A model generated the notes under the pieces. It was given only the letters and a program-made list of their open reading frames with translations, did no database searches and was not told the DNA's origin. A DNA stretch of 64,000 nt from Trueperaceae bacterium. GTDB lineage: Bacteria; Deinococcota; Deinococci; Deinococcales; Trueperaceae. Made by a program: the position numbers and the translations under genes. Positions 29,877-59,884 of this stretch are shown piece by piece. Location of the stretch: positions 128,001-192,000 of the forward strand of contig OZ243913.1 of the NCBI GenBank assembly GCA_965213705.1, in the 5' to 3' direction. Position 1 is the first letter of the stretch. The number at the start of each line of letters is the position of its first letter.

Positions 29877-30914
29877 CTACTTTTGCTCTAGGTAGTTTTT
29901 CAACCTCACCATTTCCAGTTGCCAAACAATTTCAGCTTTGTAGAGCTTGAAACCAAGTTCATTGTTGATAGCCAGCATCGGCGCATTTGAGTTAGCGTTA
30001 CCGGTACGGATGCGCTTGGCGACCGGACGCTCTTCTAAAACCTTCCGAATCATGGCGGCTTTGAGCCATTTGCCCAAGCCGTTACCCTGGTATTCAGGCA
30101 AAACGCCTGTGGCCTGCTGGTCGAGGTTCTCGGGGTTTTCTGGAAACCAGTAGGTTATGGTGAAGCCAGCTAACTTTTTAGAGGCTTTATGCCGAACATA
30201 AAGTACCCACCGTTCGACCCCTCGAGCTAAATCGTAAGCCTCGCCTTCACGCAAGTGCTCGGGTTTCGTTTGCCAGTCTTCCATCTCCAGGTCATCTCGA
30301 GGCGCTGTGTTCATAACCTCGAAAAGTTCGGCTACGGCGTCGATTTCATCATCAGGGTAACGACTTCCCCAAAAGCCCATTTCAAACTCACGAGCTTTCG
30401 TGTCGGCAAGGTCCAACCAATCAGCCAAGAGTTTTTCGTCTACCTCTTTTAAGACAAGCTGATTCACACCCGCCTCTGAGCCTTTGGTTGCCCCGACGTG
30501 CGTAGCAAAATCCTGACCAGCGGGTATAAATGAGGTTGTTGAGCCTGTGACAAGTCTTCGGTTGTATTTCTCGGCAAACGCGAGCACTTTTTCAAGAAGG
30601 GGTTTTGTGTAGCCCATTCTTCGGTAAGGCTTCACCACATGAAGCCCCATCGAAAAAAGGTGGAGGTTATTTTCGTCGAAGGCTACAGTCAAGAACAGCT
30701 CAGCAACGATTTTTTCGTCTTCCCACAGATGCCATACTTCGAGGTCAGCCCCTTCGATGAGTTTCCAGCTCTGGGCGTTTTTGATACTGAACTCGAGGGA
30801 CGGGTGGGGGTCGTCGGGCTCTGTTTCTTGACCTACGCTGTTTAAGTAATCATGGCGGGTCTTAAAGTAAGCGTCGCTGGCAGTTTCTGGGTCAAACAAG
30901 ATTAGTTCCGGCAT
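29877..30914 (-). CDS. Tandem-domain GNAT N-acetyltransferase
   Basis: V.KPYRRMG and TGVLPEYQGNGLGKWLK, TGNANSNAPMLAINNELGF; GGAGG RBS. Confidence 0.9.
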   Translation of the reverse strand: MPELILFDPETASDAYFKTRHDYLNSVGQETEPDDPHPSLEFSIKNAQSWKLIEGADLEVWHLWEDEKIVAELFLTVAFDENNLHLFSMGLHVVKPYRRMGYTKPLLEKVLAFAEKYNRRLVTGSTTSFIPAGQDFATHVGATKGSEAGVNQLVLKEVDEKLLADWLDLADTKAREFEMGFWGSRYPDDEIDAVAELFEVMNTAPRDDLEMEDWQTKPEHLREGEAYDLARGVERWVLYVRHKASKKLAGFTITYWFPENPENLDQQATGVLPEYQGNGLGKWLKAAMIRKVLEERPVAKRIRTGNANSNAPMLAINNELGFKLYKAEIVWQLEMVRLKNYLEQK

Positions 30915-31403
30915 GTCTTGCCTCCTTCAAAGGCATAAAACGGCTGTGTGAACAGAGCGCTGAACAGGAAATGTAGCGCCGCACTTTGCACTACTGCTTG
31001 GCGATTGAACTGTTAAAGAAACAGAAATTGCTCGCACACAGACTGTTGAGCTTTACCAAAGCTTGCGGCAAGTGGTAACCACACTCTCGTGACAGTCCGA
31101 TGAACATCCCGAGGGCGTTAGAGCTTCGTGTTAAACAAAGCTGGAAGTTTTAGGCAAGAGCTTTCAAAGTGCATTAAGGATGACACAAAATGGACCTGAC
31201 TGTCCAGTGTCCAAAAACTTCCAAAAATAATGCAAAGGGGTCAACTGAAATAGGGTGGATAATTGTAGGGTGATACAAGGGTTTGGCTTATTGGGTAGAG
31301 TCGTAAAGGTGGACTTGGAAGGTTTCAAATTTTACCCCTCGAGCCGTCTCTGCTCCTGAGCTTGGGTCGTTAGACCACCTTTCAAAATTTACTGGACTCA
31401 GAG

Positions 31404-31432
31404 TTGTCAAATCTACGGCAATGCCGTATAAT
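31404..31432 (+). promoter_or_regulatory. Toxin-antitoxin promoter with operator palindrome
   Basis: TTGTCA-17-TATAAT; perfect TACGGCA-A-TGCCGTA at 31414-31428. Confidence 0.8.
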
Positions 31433-31437
31433 TATTG

Positions 31438-31752
31438 ATGCTCGAGTTTGTTGAGACACCCTTGTTCACCAGGCTTGTCGAGCGTTACCTACCAGATGAC
31501 GGGTACGTCGAACTTCAAAATTATCTTGCGGAACATCCCGAGGCTGGAGATGTTGTCCGAGGTTCAGGCGGTGTCCACAAACTTCGTTGGGCTATGCAAG
31601 GTCAGGGCAAGCGCGGGGGGATGAGAGTCATCTACTATCTTAAGCTTACCGAAAACCGTATTTGGATGCTTACCCTTTACGCAAAAAATGTTAGAGAAAC
31701 GATATCTACGCACATACTCAAACAGATCAAGGAGGCTATCGACGATGAGTGA
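31438..31752 (+). CDS. higB: RelE/HigB-2 family toxin
   Basis: FVETPLF, PEAGDVVRGSGG..KLRW, GKRGGMRVIYY; toxin precedes antitoxin. Confidence 0.85.
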   Translation: MLEFVETPLFTRLVERYLPDDGYVELQNYLAEHPEAGDVVRGSGGVHKLRWAMQGQGKRGGMRVIYYLKLTENRIWMLTLYAKNVRETISTHILKQIKEAIDDE

Positions 31753-32047
31753 CGAAGAATTAGCTCAGTGGGAACGGGAGCGTGACCTCGGGCAAGAAAT
31801 TTTAGAAGGCATCAAAGACCTTAAAGCTGGCAAGGCTGGCCGCAGTTTCACCGCTGAGTCTTTTTTCATTGTACGTGCAAGGGAAAAGTCGGGTTTGAGC
31901 CAAAGTCGGTTTGCCAAACTTCTTGGGGTATCGGTGCGGACGCTTCAAGATTGGGAGCAGGGTCGGCGCGAGCCTTCGGGGGCGGCAAAAACTTTACTCA
32001 AAGTTGCCGAACTTCACCCTGAAATTTTGCGGGAAATAGCAGCTTAA
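31745..32047 (+). CDS. higA: HigA-type XRE HTH antitoxin
   Basis: GLSQSRFAKLLGVSVRTLQDWEQGRREPSG; ATG 31745 with GGAGG RBS. Confidence 0.85.
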   Translation: MSDEELAQWERERDLGQEILEGIKDLKAGKAGRSFTAESFFIVRAREKSGLSQSRFAKLLGVSVRTLQDWEQGRREPSGAAKTLLKVAELHPEILREIAA

Positions 32048-32050
32048 AGG

Positions 32051-32512
32051 TTACTCAGGGTCTTTGGGCAGTTCGCCCTGTTGAGCGGTGTCGCCTTGGC
32101 TATTGTCCGCCCACTCCTCCTGCGGCTGAAAGTTGAAAAAGCGCAACTCCGGCACCGCCGCCCTGTCCTCAGCCGTCTCGCCGTCCCGCGGCGCGTCCAT
32201 CGTGTAGTGCCCGATGGAGCTGATGAGCACGTTTGTCTTGATTTCGGTTCGCTCACTGTCACCGGGGTCGTCGAGTCGGCCCGAGTAGACGACCGGGGTG
32301 CCCTGTTCGTAAGCCTGCTCGAGGGCCTGCAGGTCGCCGCCCGCTTGGCCTATCTCCAAGTGCCAGGTGCCGGTCACGTCGGTTACTTCGTCCTGTTGCC
32401 CGCGGACTACTTGCAGGGTGCCCCGCCCAGGAACTCCGCCCAGTTCGGCCGGACCGGTCTCCGCACTGGGGGCGGCCTCGCCTGCGCTCAAGTCGTCCAT
32501 GTCGAAACTCAT
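32051..32512 (-). CDS. Hypothetical acidic protein
   Basis: 153-aa ORF with GAGGAGG RBS and TACACT -10 upstream. Confidence 0.7.
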   Translation of the reverse strand: MSFDMDDLSAGEAAPSAETGPAELGGVPGRGTLQVVRGQQDEVTDVTGTWHLEIGQAGGDLQALEQAYEQGTPVVYSGRLDDPGDSERTEIKTNVLISSIGHYTMDAPRDGETAEDRAAVPELRFFNFQPQEEWADNSQGDTAQQGELPKDPE

Positions 32513-32587
32513 TTAGGGCCTCCTCTGAAACGTGGTTTTTCTTGTCGTGCAGTGTAACACCCTCTCGAGCCCCTAGGATAAGGGGTC

Positions 32588-32630
32588 AAAAAAACCCGCA
32601 GCCAGGAGGAGGGCCGCGGGGAGGAGGTGT
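32588..32630 (-). ncRNA. Candidate ~43-nt sRNA with two CCUCCUC anti-SD motifs; its hairpin also serves as the mutM terminator
   Basis: Own motif promoter (32637-32670); ACACCUCCUC-CCCGCGGCC-CUCCUCCU-GGCUGCGGG-UUUUUUU. Confidence 0.55.
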
Positions 32631-32636
32631 ACGGGA

Positions 32637-32670
32637 AGTATAGGGTTCAAACCCTTACAAATTTCTTACT
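32637..32670 (-). promoter_or_regulatory. Direct-repeat activator-type promoter, copy 1
   Basis: AGTAAG-aaatt-TGTAAG-N11-TATACT. Confidence 0.7.
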
Positions 32671-33487
32671 TGCGCCGCGGCAGCTGACACTTCGGGCAAA
32701 AGTGCGTGCCTCGCCCGGCCACGACGATTTTCGAAATCGGCGTGCCGCAGCGGGGACAGGGTGCCTCTTTTTGGCCGTAGGCGTTGAGTTCGTCCAGGTA
32801 CGCCCCGACCTCGCCGTTGACGGTGCGGTAGTCGCGCAGGGTCGTGCCCTGAACCGCAATCGAGGCGGTAAGCACGTCTTTAATCATCGTCACCAGGAGC
32901 GGGATTTGCCGTTTAGGGACGCGGTTCGAAGGGGTCAGCGGGTGGATTTTGCTCGCCCATAGCGCCTCGTCCGCGTAGATGTTGCCGACGCCCGACACGG
33001 GTTTTTGGCTCAGGAGGTAGGTTTTGACGGCGACGCTGGACTTAGCGAGCGCTTCGGCAAGCTGTTCGGGGTTGAAGGCGTCGCTCAGCGGTTCCGGCCC
33101 CATCGCGTGCAGGGTCGGCAAGCTTGTATAGTCGCCCGTCGGCACGACCAGAAAGCGCCCGAAGCGGCGCGCGTCTTGAAAGTAGAGGGTAGGGTTCTCG
33201 CCCTCGTCAAGCTCGAGCCTCACCCGCACGTGCTTACCGGGGTCGCGCGGACTGACGATGCCGGTCATGCCTAAGTGGACGACCATTTCGTCGCCGCGCT
33301 CGAGCGGCAACAGGAGAAACTTGCCGCGCCGGTTCACGGCGTCGATGCGCTGCCCGGCGGCGCGTTCCAGACCGGCGTACTTCGGGCCCGGCGGCGCGTC
33401 GACGCGCTCGGCTCTCAGGATGGTCCGCCCGGTAAGCCAGGGCGCTAGCTCGCGTCGGACGGTTTCGACTTCGGGAAGTTCGGGCAA
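32666..33487 (-). CDS. mutM: Formamidopyrimidine-DNA glycosylase
   Basis: PELPEVET, RRGKF, HLGMTG, GVGNIYADE, C-terminal zinc finger CPRC...CPKCQ. Confidence 0.97.
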   Translation of the reverse strand: MPELPEVETVRRELAPWLTGRTILRAERVDAPPGPKYAGLERAAGQRIDAVNRRGKFLLLPLERGDEMVVHLGMTGIVSPRDPGKHVRVRLELDEGENPTLYFQDARRFGRFLVVPTGDYTSLPTLHAMGPEPLSDAFNPEQLAEALAKSSVAVKTYLLSQKPVSGVGNIYADEALWASKIHPLTPSNRVPKRQIPLLVTMIKDVLTASIAVQGTTLRDYRTVNGEVGAYLDELNAYGQKEAPCPRCGTPISKIVVAGRGTHFCPKCQLPRRK

Positions 33488-33502
33488 GGGGTATCACCTC
33501 AA

Positions 33503-33580
33503 AGAAGTACCGAGTACCGAGTGGAAAGTAGAAAGTGAAAAAGAAAGTTCTAGCCTTTTCGCCTCTGCTCCTCTGCGCTT
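33503..33580. repeat. Heptamer-repeat element (GTACCGA / GAAAGTA units)
   Basis: AAGTACCGAGTACCGAGTGGAAAGTA matches the 48739 copy at 24 of 26 nt. Confidence 0.65.
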
Positions 33581-33693
33581 TCGGCTCGAGACGGTTCACC
33601 AACAGAAGCGTCCAACTTGCCTAGAGTCTACCGCGCGCCGAATTGCAGCGCCGTCGGCACCTCGACATGCCACGGTAGTGCTAGCCTGGGCGC

Positions 33694-35112
33694 ATGTCAC
33701 GCTTCGACGCCGCCGTGGTGGGTTCCGGGCCGAACGGGCTGGCCGCGGGAATCGTGCTCGCCCAGGCCGGGCTCAAGGTCGCGTTGTACGAGGCGCGCGA
33801 GACCGTCGGCGGCGGGATGCGTACTGCTGAACTCACGCTGCCAGGGTTCAAGCACGACGTTTGCTCGGCGATTCACCCGCTCGGGGTGGGCTCGCCGTTT
33901 TTCAGGACGTTGCCGCTTGAAAACTACGGCCTCGAGTGGGTCTACCCGGACGCGCCCCTGGCGCATCCGCTGGACGGCGGGGCGGTAGTGCTCGAGCGGT
34001 CGTTGGACGCGACGCTGGAAAACTTGGGCGAGGACGCCAGGGCCTACGAAGCGCTGTTCGCGCCCCTCGTCGAGCACTGGGAAGGACTTGCTGGCGACTT
34101 TCTCGGGCCGCTGTTGCGCTTTCCGCAGCACCCCCTGACGCTCGCCCGTTTCGGCGTGCGGGCGCTGCCGAGCGCGACGCTGTTGGCGAACACGGTGTTC
34201 AAGGGCGAACGGGCGCGGGCGCTGTTTGCAGGCCTGGCGGCGCATTCCATTTTGCCGCTCGAGGCCCCCGCGACCGCCGCCTTTGGGCTCGTGTTGGGGC
34301 TGCTTGGGCACGCGGTCGGCTGGCCGTTTCCGAAGGGCGGGGCGCAGGTGTTCGCCGACGCCCTCAGCGCGCACTTCAGGACGCTCGGCGGCGAGGTTTT
34401 TACGGGTGCGAAGGTCGAATCGCTCGAGGGGCTCGAGGCCAAAACCGTCCTGTTAGATGTCGGGGCCAAGCAGTTTTTGGGCATGGCGGACGACAGCTTG
34501 CCGAGTGATTACCGGCGGGCGCTCGAGCGCTACCGCCACGGCGCGGGCGTGTTCAAGCTCGACTACGCCCTCAGCGGCCCGGTGCCCTGGCGGGACGAGG
34601 CTTGCTTGCGCGCCGGGACGGTTCACGTGGGCGGAACGCTGAACGAGATTGCCGCTTCGGAACGGGCCATGAAACGGGGTGAAGTCCCTGAGCGGCCCTA
34701 CGTCTTGGTCGCGCAGCAAAGTTTGTTCGACCCCAGCCGCGCACCCGAGGGCAAGCACACCTTGTGGGCGTACTGCCACGTGCCGAACGGCTCGGCGGCG
34801 GACATGACGGAGGCGGTCGAGGCGCAGCTCGAGCGCTTCGCCCCCGGTTTTCGGGAGCGCGTGCTGGCGCGGCACACCATGAACGCTCCGGCTTTCGAGA
34901 GCTACAACCCCAACTACGTCGGCGGCGACATCAACGGCGGCGCGGCTAGTTTGTGGCAACTCTTGGCGCGGCCCGTCCCGCGCCCGAATCCTTACAAGAC
35001 ACCCTTGGACGGCGTTTACCTGTGCTCCGCCTCGACGCCTCCGGGTGGCGGCGTCCACGGCATGTGCGGTTACCACGCGGCGCGGGCGGCGCTGCGCGAA
35101 GTGTTGGGTTGA
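33694..35112 (+). CDS. Phytoene desaturase-family FAD-dependent oxidoreductase
   Basis: GSGPNGL Rossmann motif, HDVCSAIHP, CSASTPPGGGVHGMCG. Confidence 0.88.
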   Translation: MSRFDAAVVGSGPNGLAAGIVLAQAGLKVALYEARETVGGGMRTAELTLPGFKHDVCSAIHPLGVGSPFFRTLPLENYGLEWVYPDAPLAHPLDGGAVVLERSLDATLENLGEDARAYEALFAPLVEHWEGLAGDFLGPLLRFPQHPLTLARFGVRALPSATLLANTVFKGERARALFAGLAAHSILPLEAPATAAFGLVLGLLGHAVGWPFPKGGAQVFADALSAHFRTLGGEVFTGAKVESLEGLEAKTVLLDVGAKQFLGMADDSLPSDYRRALERYRHGAGVFKLDYALSGPVPWRDEACLRAGTVHVGGTLNEIAASERAMKRGEVPERPYVLVAQQSLFDPSRAPEGKHTLWAYCHVPNGSAADMTEAVEAQLERFAPGFRERVLARHTMNAPAFESYNPNYVGGDINGGAASLWQLLARPVPRPNPYKTPLDGVYLCSASTPPGGGVHGMCGYHAARAALREVLG

Positions 35113-35235: not shown

Positions 35236-36342
35236 TTATGCGTACAGGTAAAATCCGTTTTTGCCCCGTTTTTTGGCGCAGTACATCGCCTGGTCGGCCT
35301 GCGCGAGTAGGGCGTCGGGCGTGCCTGTAGTCGTTTGATAAATCGCAAAACCGACGCTGGCACTAACTTGGTATTCAACGCCTTTTAAGTCGAAGGGAGC
35401 TTGCAGCGTTTCTATCAACTTGGCGGCCACGGCGTTGACCCCTGCGGGCGTGGTAGCCGCCGGTAACAGCGCCGCAAACTCGTCACCGCTGATGCGCGCC
35501 AGCAAGTCTGCGGCGCGCAACTGCGTTTTCAAACGGGCGGCGACCTCTTTGAGAAGCAGGTCGCCTGCATGGTGACCAAGGGTGTCGTTGACCGTTTTAA
35601 AGTTGTCGAGGTCGATGAACGCCAGCGCAAACCCGCCCTGGTCGCGCTGAGCACTTTTGCAGGCCTGCGTTAAGTGAGTGTCGAACAGCAGCCGGTTGGG
35701 CAGTCCGGTCAGAGGGTCTTTGTAGGCCAGCTCGGCCACCGCCTCCGCACGGGCGCGCACCTGGTTGCTGACCTCTAAAAAGTGAGTAAGTGTGTAGAGC
35801 ATGGCAATATACACACCGCCCAAGGTGGGCACAGACAATAGAAACCCCTGGACGACGTCGTGCTCTGCTCGCGCGGGCGTCAGGTGCAACAAGTAAGGAG
35901 CGGCGAGCGCCAAGGTGCTGGCTATAAACAGGAGTGAGACTTGCAAACCTCGCCGCCTTTTGAAAGCTAAAAACGACCACACGTAAATGGGCGGCGAGAA
36001 CATCAAAAAAGCCTCGAGGTAAATTCGCATGTGAGGCTCTGACCTGCCGTACAGCAACTGCTCGAGCACCAGCAAGTTGTAGCTGCACAAAACGGCTAAA
36101 ATGCCCCACTCGACCAGTTTCAAGCTGTCCGGACGCACCCACAGCAAAAGTGCCAAAAGAGCGAGCGCGGCAAGAACCACCGGAACCAGCGTTTCATAGA
36201 AACTTTGAAACCATAAAAAGCCGCCCAGCAGCGTTTGGGATAGGCCCGCAGCGAAACCCAGCAGCAGGGCGACAAGGTAAAAGCTGCGCCGAGAGCGCTC
36301 TTCCAGAGCCGGGGGTTGGGGTTTGTTCGGGGCAGCGTACAA
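35236..36342 (-). CDS. Membrane-bound diguanylate cyclase (GGDEF domain, SGDEF variant)
   Basis: About six TMs; DPLTGLPNR, IDLDNFKTVNDTLGH, RAAD I-site, SGDEF, ADQAMY; start uncertain. Confidence 0.9.
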   Translation of the reverse strand: MYAAPNKPQPPALEERSRRSFYLVALLLGFAAGLSQTLLGGFLWFQSFYETLVPVVLAALALLALLLWVRPDSLKLVEWGILAVLCSYNLLVLEQLLYGRSEPHMRIYLEAFLMFSPPIYVWSFLAFKRRRGLQVSLLFIASTLALAAPYLLHLTPARAEHDVVQGFLLSVPTLGGVYIAMLYTLTHFLEVSNQVRARAEAVAELAYKDPLTGLPNRLLFDTHLTQACKSAQRDQGGFALAFIDLDNFKTVNDTLGHHAGDLLLKEVAARLKTQLRAADLLARISGDEFAALLPAATTPAGVNAVAAKLIETLQAPFDLKGVEYQVSASVGFAIYQTTTGTPDALLAQADQAMYCAKKRGKNGFYLYA

Positions 36343-36352
36343 GGTAGCAAAC

Positions 36353-36386
36353 AGTGTAAGTCAGCAGACGTCACAAAACTCTTACA
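36353..36386 (-). promoter_or_regulatory. Direct-repeat activator-type promoter, copy 2 (diguanylate cyclase)
   Basis: TGTAAG-agttt-TGTGAC-N11-TACACT. Confidence 0.7.
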
Positions 36387-36482
36387 CTTCGTCGGCACTC
36401 AGCGGCCCGCGTCGCGCTGCCGGGAGTCGTGCAGCTAAAAAAGCACAAAGGCAAACCCGCTCTACCGGCCGCCGGGGACGGC

Positions 36483-59660: not shown

Positions 59661-59795
59661 TTACTGCTCGGGTCTGAAGCCGTCCGCACAGGTTTTGCAG
59701 ATTTTCAAGCTCGGAGCCGTTACCGAAGCCGCGAAGCTGAGACCGCCGCCGACGAGGATGAGGCTGAAGAGCAAACCTTTAACGATGTTTTTCAT
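59661..59795 (-). CDS. 44-aa secreted peptide precursor with CxxC
   Basis: MKNIVKGLLFSLILVGGGLSFA|ASVTAPSLKICKTCADGFRPEQ; AAAGGA RBS; own promoter and terminator. Confidence 0.75.
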   Translation of the reverse strand: MKNIVKGLLFSLILVGGGLSFAASVTAPSLKICKTCADGFRPEQ

Positions 59796-59850
59796 TTTGT
59801 TGTCCTTTCTTCCGGGGCTGCCGGCGCTTCGTTGCGTCCGGCTTGAAATG

Positions 59851-59884
59851 AGTTTACAAAAGACTGTCTTACACAAATCTTACG
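59851..59884 (-). promoter_or_regulatory. Direct-repeat activator-type promoter, copy 3 (peptide gene)
   Basis: CGTAAG-atttg-TGTAAG-N11-TAAACT. Confidence 0.7.

Follow-up and report, generated by a model that had tools for sequence, protein, structure and literature searches.

A 43-nt unit downstream of mutM is probably a real, regulated small-RNA gene, as judged from its promoter class, its fold and its relatives. The unit lies in the window (the whole 64,000-nucleotide stretch of DNA analysed), which belongs to a 98% complete Trueperaceae genome, here G000; G001 denotes a sister species of the same genus. The sequence displays a class of promoters that combine a direct-repeat box with a -10 element, an enrichment of GGDEF genes behind this box, open anti-Shine-Dalgarno (anti-SD) sites, and longer C-rich RNAs that form a multicopy family. 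The best reading is that the mutM RNA belongs, as a short and young copy, to a multicopy system of anti-SD small RNAs driven by an activator. With a probability of roughly 0.6, and favoured by the analogy with LhrC, the unit would be an activator-driven small RNA that represses translation by occluding SD sequences.

Fold of the 43-nt unit and its locus

The unit (Table 1) folds with -18.9 kcal/mol into a structure that accounts for 97% of the ensemble (z -4.16), and none of 200 shuffled versions was as stable as the native sequence. Neither nucleotides 1-10 nor the loop requires energy to open (about 0 kcal/mol), so that both C-rich sites are computed to be open. An 8-nt stretch of the arm is identical to part of the 16S rRNA tail of G000, and CCUCCUCC occurs twice within 23 nt of the unit, which contains no start codon. 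A script identified 598 intergenic terminator-like hairpins in G000; an anti-SD 5-mer is present in the loop of 10 and in the 14 nt before the stem of 23, while the mutM unit is the single hairpin that carries it in both places. The short hairpin with a U7 tract and anti-SD motifs in the free arm and loop, as proposed in an earlier note on this DNA, is thus confirmed (z -4.2; 1/598).

Table 1 Coordinates of the mutM locus, of other box promoters in the window and of related box-driven RNAs
Feature	Position	Strand	Remarks
mutM/fpg, upstream neighbour	32666..33487	minus	Pfam Fapy_DNA_glyco, H2TH, zf-FPG
Direct-repeat activator box, GTAAG (32669-32665)-N6-GTAAG (32658-32654)	32653..32670	minus	predicted
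-10 element TATACT	32642-32637	minus	11 nt past the second half-site
Predicted 43-nt small RNA	32630-32588	minus	from fold and calibrated +1
Unpaired 5' arm ACACCUCCUC	32630-32621	minus	CACCUCCU in common with the 3' tail of G000 16S rRNA
Terminator stem, 9 bp, one G-U	32620-32612 with 32603-32595	minus	
Terminator loop CUCCUCCU, second anti-SD site	32611-32604	minus	specific to the mutM copy
U7 tract	32594-32588	minus	
Intrinsic terminator (9-bp stem and U7)	32620-32588	minus	also ends mutM transcripts
153-aa acidic protein, no known family	32051..32512	minus	own TACACT 32556-32551, GAGGAGG SD 32525-32519
Second box promoter in the window	36347..36386	minus	before GGDEF gene 35236-36342; same regulon
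Third box promoter in the window	59845..59884	minus	before a 44-aa signal-peptide-like ORF (59661-59795)
Sibling C-rich RNA, same box	G000:C1:1864256-1864334	minus	
Sibling C-rich RNA, same box	G000:C1:3347590-3347686	minus	
Sibling C-rich RNA, same box	G000:C1:2734148-2734215	plus	
Sibling C-rich RNA, same box	G000:C1:36322-36364	minus	
Box-driven RNA of genus g25, about 70 nt	L275:930-1003; also L399-L412	minus (L275)	near-invariant CCCUCAUCCUUCCCUCC linker; before one conserved gene

No second copy of the stretch was found in G000, and the readings as a CRISPR repeat or a REP element were dropped for this reason. Rfam gave no match to the mutM RNA at E up to 5 in the region searched (30000-35000). 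A contig from a public run covers 32467-33485 with 0 differences; as the run is possibly the source sample itself, the agreement only rules out an assembly slip. No public contig of a related organism spanning the element was found.

The arrangement is not a property of mutM loci. When 29 other mutM loci were read by eye the cassette was present in none, and only G001 has the same gene downstream of mutM. The G001 locus presents a similar stem with a different loop, no -10 and no C-rich arm. The loop sequence, on whose conservation the earlier note had staked its proposal, is absent from the sister species and from the three closest short copies, which counts against that note at the level of the locus. 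No functional link between mutM and the RNA was found. The downstream gene does possess its own -10 element, as had been claimed, and G001 keeps a TACACT there. This gene adjoins mutM in G001 and is about 80% alike in the contigs of another organism. Its product has no Pfam match and only weak Atlas leads (0.90), to viral hypothetical proteins.

Two further elements were noticed. An AT-richer stretch of the window (31404-32047, plus strand) encodes a RelE-type toxin (31435-31752) and an HTH antitoxin (31745-32047), preceded by a near-consensus sigma-70 promoter overlain by a palindrome. In G001, about 130 nt upstream of mutM (L002:3008-3134) match 13 places in G000 with 76-94% identity and constitute a short dispersed repeat.

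A direct-repeat promoter box in front of the RNA

A GTAAG-N6-GTAAG repeat, absent from the earlier note, ends 11 nt before the -10 element of the unit, and the mutM stop codon (32668-32666) sits inside its first half-site. The box was first traced through a similarity search of G001, in which a weak match (E 0.39) after tRNA-Val proved to be a similar unit with the identical upstream repeat. A matrix trained on 12 sites, the mutM site left out, detected 84 sites of at least 14 bits in G000 vs 34 in the reversed genome. TANNNT follows these 84 sites at a gap of 11 in 34 cases and of 10 in eight, while all remaining gaps from 8 to 15 together account for a single case. The second round of the matrix yielded 51 box promoters in G000, among which the mutM site ranks 23rd; on matrices trained without it this site scores 22.7 and 24.5 bits. 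In 11 of the 51 an ATG falls between -1 and +2 relative to the predicted start, and the starts calibrated in this way place the predicted +1 of the mutM RNA at A32630. This agrees with Deinococcus deserti, where a distance of 12-13 nt separates most starts in the first rows of table S5 (PMC4007540) from the first base of the -10. A simple sigma-70 scan did not list the promoter because it has no -35, and the promoter call rests on the direct-repeat box. An independent short RNA, as the earlier note had envisaged, now appears much likelier, since its -10 belongs to a class of 51 with a fixed repeat and since box-driven C-rich RNAs recur throughout the family.

The strict pattern of box and -10 occurs in 17 of 36 Trueperaceae genomes and three of six genomes of family f5, and in none of 18 from families f2-f4; its reversed control gave 0 matches in all 61 genomes. 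A relaxed pattern matched 10, 8 and 6 times in three genomes of the large genus g25, which, judged by its size and proteins, would be Deinococcus (controls 1, 0 and 1), and 1 and 4 times in two f5 genomes (controls 1 and 2); it gave 0 in three f4 genomes and 0-1 in two f3 genomes.

Genes behind the box and the search for its activator

A clear ORF follows the box in enough cases for 32 proteins, taken from the 51 sites, to be scanned for domains. GGDEF, with or without EAL, occurs in 12 and HD domains in four, so that GGDEF, EAL or HD are found in 16 of the 32. The remainder include one type II/IV secretion ATPase, read as PilT-like, one pilin and two subtilases, and nine proteins have no domain match. 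By our own gene calls the box precedes 12 of 29 GGDEF genes vs 30 of 3988 other genes (p 1e-17). Among 18 box-led proteins scanned from g25 and f5 there are two pilins and three GGDEF proteins, together with Lon, SpoVS and a LEA protein; the box thus stands in front of pilin and GGDEF genes in g25 as well. A c-di-GMP-II riboswitch leader is also located behind the box (L079:1389-1473, minus), and at L113 three box promoters follow one another, two of them before pilin-like starts with a common leader.

A repeat with an 11-bp period just before the -10 is typical of OmpR/PhoB-type activators, and we infer an activator of this type. CiaR is an example of an activator that binds a direct repeat in this position (PMC3091779, available in part). 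None of the nine full-length OmpR-type genes of G000 has the box upstream, nor do the ddrI-like genes or pstS; PhoB is an unlikely activator because pstS lacks the box. An OmpR-family regulator at G000:C1:3022003-3022689 (plus) is conserved with 81-100% identity in 61/61 genomes of the order and is distinct from the DrRRA orthologue. The structure 3Q9S, which we take to be DrRRA, fits gene 1693974 better than gene 3022003 (E 6e-76 vs 5e-46), and the latter was rejected as DrRRA. The 1693974 gene is present in 58 of the 61 genomes. As both regulators also occur in families that have no box, neither phylogenetic profile is decisive. The DrRRA sites described in the available parts of the literature (PMC10778927 among the sources) are unlike the box. 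In the same available parts of the literature, DrRRA is the sole known route of biofilm control in Deinococcus and its binding site is poorly defined.

Related C-rich RNAs behind the same box

A box promoter precedes only four of the 598 terminators at a distance of 60-190 nt; each of the four carries anti-SD motifs, as do 32 of the 598 in total (p 7e-6). C-rich sites open behind the same box at G000 positions 36403, 160670, 1864374, 2734109 and 3347726, and the genome contains at least five sibling RNAs. Across the family, a box, a -10 and CCTCC within 30 nt occur together in 24 of 102 genomes (control 0), where they define three RNA types. The first, of 72-96 nt, displays CCUCCC in the loop of a 5' hairpin and CUCCC in that of the terminator, with a C/U linker between the two; the second has the linker CCAUCUCCUCUCU; in the third, short type, which includes the mutM RNA, the anti-SD motif is located at the extreme 5' end. 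In 15 long-type sequences the terminator stem is 100% paired, eight of its nine pairs are compensating and UCCC in the loop is invariant; none of 500 shuffles reached the score, although kinship among the sequences inflates these covariation statistics.

A covariance model of the long type with no promoter sequence in it (R1) returned matches in 31 of 44 family genomes. The box lies upstream of 27 of the 30 best matches (25 of 28 once the two training loci are set aside) and a -10 is also present in 26, while all downstream control windows score below 0. As the training set was picked through the box and from kin genomes, the family counts overstate independence. Weak R1 matches were found in four of 44 f2, 14 of 43 f4, one of seven f5 and none of 12 f3 genomes; seven such matches outside the family were read, none with a box. 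On the Rfam and covariance check raised by the earlier note, no Rfam family applies, and nothing exceeded the cut-off for 24 related loci either; long relatives, mostly behind the box, are widespread in Trueperaceae.

A second model (R2), built on 26 3' modules with G000 and G001 left out, detected four long copies in G000 and failed to match the mutM RNA, even within the window with filters off. R1 missed it genome-wide in G000 and gave 14.8 bits in a small search. The two models thus detect the mutM RNA barely or not at all, which falls short of demonstrating homology with the long family; the tie that the sequences do carry lies in promoter and motif logic, not in common descent. For experiments, the sibling RNAs at 1864256-1864334 and 3347590-3347686, which are of family-conserved types, are preferable to the mutM copy.

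In g25, 33 of 93 genomes encode an RNA built on the plan of these C-rich RNAs, and the box is present at 13 of 14 loci read. In D. deserti, the tables of PMC4007540, available in part, show no start between 2000880 and 2001019, in front of the gene that elsewhere adjoins this RNA; the gap there, of 138 nt, is probably too short for the element, so that the absence is no test. The g25 RNA may already have a Dsr number in the D. radiodurans small-RNA catalogue (PMC4325154). A search of mostly open-access literature for the box or the C-rich RNAs in this group found nothing relevant.

Further observations concern the surroundings of the long RNAs. Sixteen long-type loci (within L178-L203) have one neighbouring gene in common, read as elongation factor G, and five stand beside a phosphate-transport operon. 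A C-rich RNA at G000:C1:2741029-2741124 (plus; L226) has no box and is preceded at about 75 nt by TGTGA-N6-TCACA, presumably a CRP-type site; similar sites precede the RNA copies L188, L216, L218 and L221, and in some copies such a site takes the place of the box. These suggest a possible second, CRP-type input to some C-rich RNAs.

Turnover of the short copies

The short type is confined to three of 128 family genomes: G000 and G001 have two copies each, and G109 has one, of 63 nt. The copy at a tRNA cluster is common to G000 and G001, the mutM copy occurs in G000 only and L105 in G001 only, being absent at the matching G000 site; the copies thus turn over between the two species. The three other short copies of the genus retain the ACC(U)CC 5' start and have a common loop without an anti-SD motif. 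In genus g2, L109 encodes a short RNA that combines CCUCC at its 5' end with CUCCCU in its loop. Conservation extends to the promoter, to the arm with its 5' ACC(U)CC and to the wider family, not to the loop, and the mutM copy is a recent addition at the genus level. Scans with the short-type pattern gave two matches in metagenomes, taken as chance, three among viruses and four in the genome collection, of which two are the G001 copies and two come from other phyla; a looser search for the two motifs was uninformative, as its controls were of similar size.

This turnover could also mean that the unit is a recently duplicated promoter-terminator cassette which serves mainly to terminate mutM, any short RNA being redundant or without effect and the loop motif a local duplication of the arm. 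The missing cassette at G001 mutM and the missing L105 in G000 agree with such a history, as do the two occurrences of CCUCCUCC and the failure of the conserved-family models to find the mutM RNA. Nevertheless, box, spacing and -10 are intact in a promoter that ranks 23rd of 51, both motifs are fully open and each sister species keeps two short copies, which makes this explanation unlikely.

Predicted targets and mechanism

In the preferred reading, that of a small RNA acting by SD occlusion, an activator would bind the direct-repeat box and promote transcription from the -10 into the hairpin-terminated unit, so that the RNA would be switched on together with cyclic-di-GMP and pilus genes; its exposed CCUCCU sites would then pair with GGAGG ribosome-binding sites and repress translation. 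No Hfq or CsrA gene was found in the 98% complete G000. We infer the transcription, base-pairing, Hfq-independence and targets of the mutM RNA.

A scan of 4017 start regions, with opening costs included, predicted pairing with the mutM RNA at -8 kcal/mol or better in 260 and at -10 or better in 77, the best at -15.7, and no single target stood out among them. The -8 kcal/mol level is reached by 193 of 905 strong-SD, 36 of 735 weak-SD, 28 of 1768 unclassified and three of 609 leaderless starts, a comparison with some circularity, as SD sequence itself served to define the classes. Leaderless mRNAs are accordingly predicted, from sequence, to escape the RNA. The selective action on SD-led mRNAs suggested in the earlier note thus finds support in the direction of this predicted difference, subject to its partial circularity. 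The adjacent gene at 32512, put forward there as an example, appears to be an ordinary candidate rather than a special target: it ranks 214th of 4017 and persists in G001 without the RNA. A G-rich leader at G000:C1:3099536-3099862 (minus), before a gene whose product looks like a c-di-AMP-binding PII-like protein, ranks within the best eight predictions for three sibling RNAs and 31st for the mutM RNA; it is a target lead only.

The lack of a standout target is also what would be seen if the RNA acted as a decoy, titrating a protein with affinity for C/U-rich single strands. RsmY and RsmZ titrate RsmA in this way, under GacA control, in c-di-GMP networks. Multiple copies, repeated motifs displayed in loops and co-regulation with c-di-GMP genes fit a decoy, and the conserved loop of the long family, CUCCC, is not an exact anti-SD sequence. 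However, the arm of the mutM RNA repeats 8 nt of the 16S tail, LhrC pairs with SD sequences through the same layout, no CsrA was found and no candidate binding protein was identified; a decoy is judged quite unlikely. It is very improbable that the motifs act in cis, with a read-through RNA pairing to the GAGGAGG of gene 32512 to tune it: this SD, some 80 nt beyond the loop, can pair with either site (-8.4 kcal/mol net), but a strong terminator intervenes, the gene has its own -10, G001 keeps gene and SD without the motifs, and sibling RNAs stand before unrelated or opposite genes. A global damper that mimics the 16S tail, lowers SD-led translation broadly and favours leaderless mRNAs draws on the short generic seeds, the 193/905 vs 3/609 difference and the 11/51 box promoters that start with ATG, yet it is just as improbable, given that this class comparison is partly circular, that C-rich small RNAs are known to act on few targets (LhrC on lapB; PMC4132741, available in part) and that the leaderless share of the regulon does not exceed the 60% reported for D. 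deserti in the available part of PMC4007540.

Implications

Small-RNA repression by SD occlusion, extended from the mutM copy to the whole regulon, would make the box a Deinococcales master switch, with one activator turning on much of the c-di-GMP network, type IV pili and a battery of anti-SD small RNAs whose minimal unit is the 43-nt RNA. This extension is doubtful. If true, the small RNAs re-route translation away from SD-led mRNAs in leaderless-rich cells, and the mutM RNA is a bare mimic of the 16S tail on a terminator. The system is more interesting than the mutM copy itself: a single hairpin leads to a testable system consisting of a box with about 50 targets, centred on c-di-GMP enzymes and pili, and a multicopy C-rich small-RNA family. 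Box and related RNA also occur in g25, presumably Deinococcus, where genetics exist. In a leaderless-rich organism with no Hfq found, the question is whether a small RNA can sort mRNAs by their mode of initiation.

Comparison with known systems

The likeness to LhrC and the csRNAs suggests a recurring design. According to the available part of PMC4132741, LhrC of Listeria monocytogenes carries UCCC in a loop, in a linker and in the terminator loop, and these sites pair with the lapB SD without Hfq. The loop-linker-loop layout of the LisRK-dependent LhrC1-5 recurs in the long relatives described here. LhrC RNAs are longer (111-114 nt vs 43 nt for the mutM RNA and about 65-100 nt for its relatives), belong to a different phylum and act in envelope stress, in contrast to the c-di-GMP and pilus genes of the present regulon. 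The csRNAs of Streptococcus were discovered by a similar logic of direct repeat, -10 and terminator. Their CiaR promoters carry TTTAAG-N5-TTTAAG 10 bp before the -10, vs (T)GTAAG at 10-11 nt here. In the part of PMC3091779 available, csRNAs occur in two to six diverse copies per genome, 16 have a terminator hairpin alone, SD-complementary stretches are present and the smallest listed as intact has 51 nt. Neither the mutM RNA nor the 24 related loci match the LhrC or csRNA families by sequence or covariance.

The cuckoo RNAs of alphaproteobacteria (RSs0680/ar14), invoked in the earlier note, consist of 2-4 adjacent hairpins with CCUCCUCCC in each (PMC4615179, available in part). They resemble the present RNAs in a C-rich, anti-SD-like loop motif, variable stems and several copies per genome. 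Membership (ar14, RF02344) was rejected, as the mutM RNA has one hairpin, with CUCCUCCU as its loop, and a free arm, CCUCCUCCC spans the arm into the stem rather than forming the loop, and no Rfam match was obtained; a g25 relative reaches 26.5 bits with the cuckoo model against a cut-off of 58.8. The known D. radiodurans small RNAs are of the same phylum and act in trans by pairing, as proposed here; in the available parts of their descriptions, PprS/Dsr2 and DsrO/Dsr19 stabilise their targets, with no SD action (PMC9195949, PMC6300522 and PMC8217566 among the sources).

The mutM RNA shares with multicopy, activator-driven C-rich small RNAs a box at a fixed distance from the -10, and with their functional kind an intergenic position, an intrinsic terminator, no ORF and several open C-rich copies under one box, which is also the promoter box of the long Trueperaceae family. 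As a kind of small RNA it is ordinary, following the logic of LhrC and the csRNAs; the phylum is new and the box apparently undescribed.
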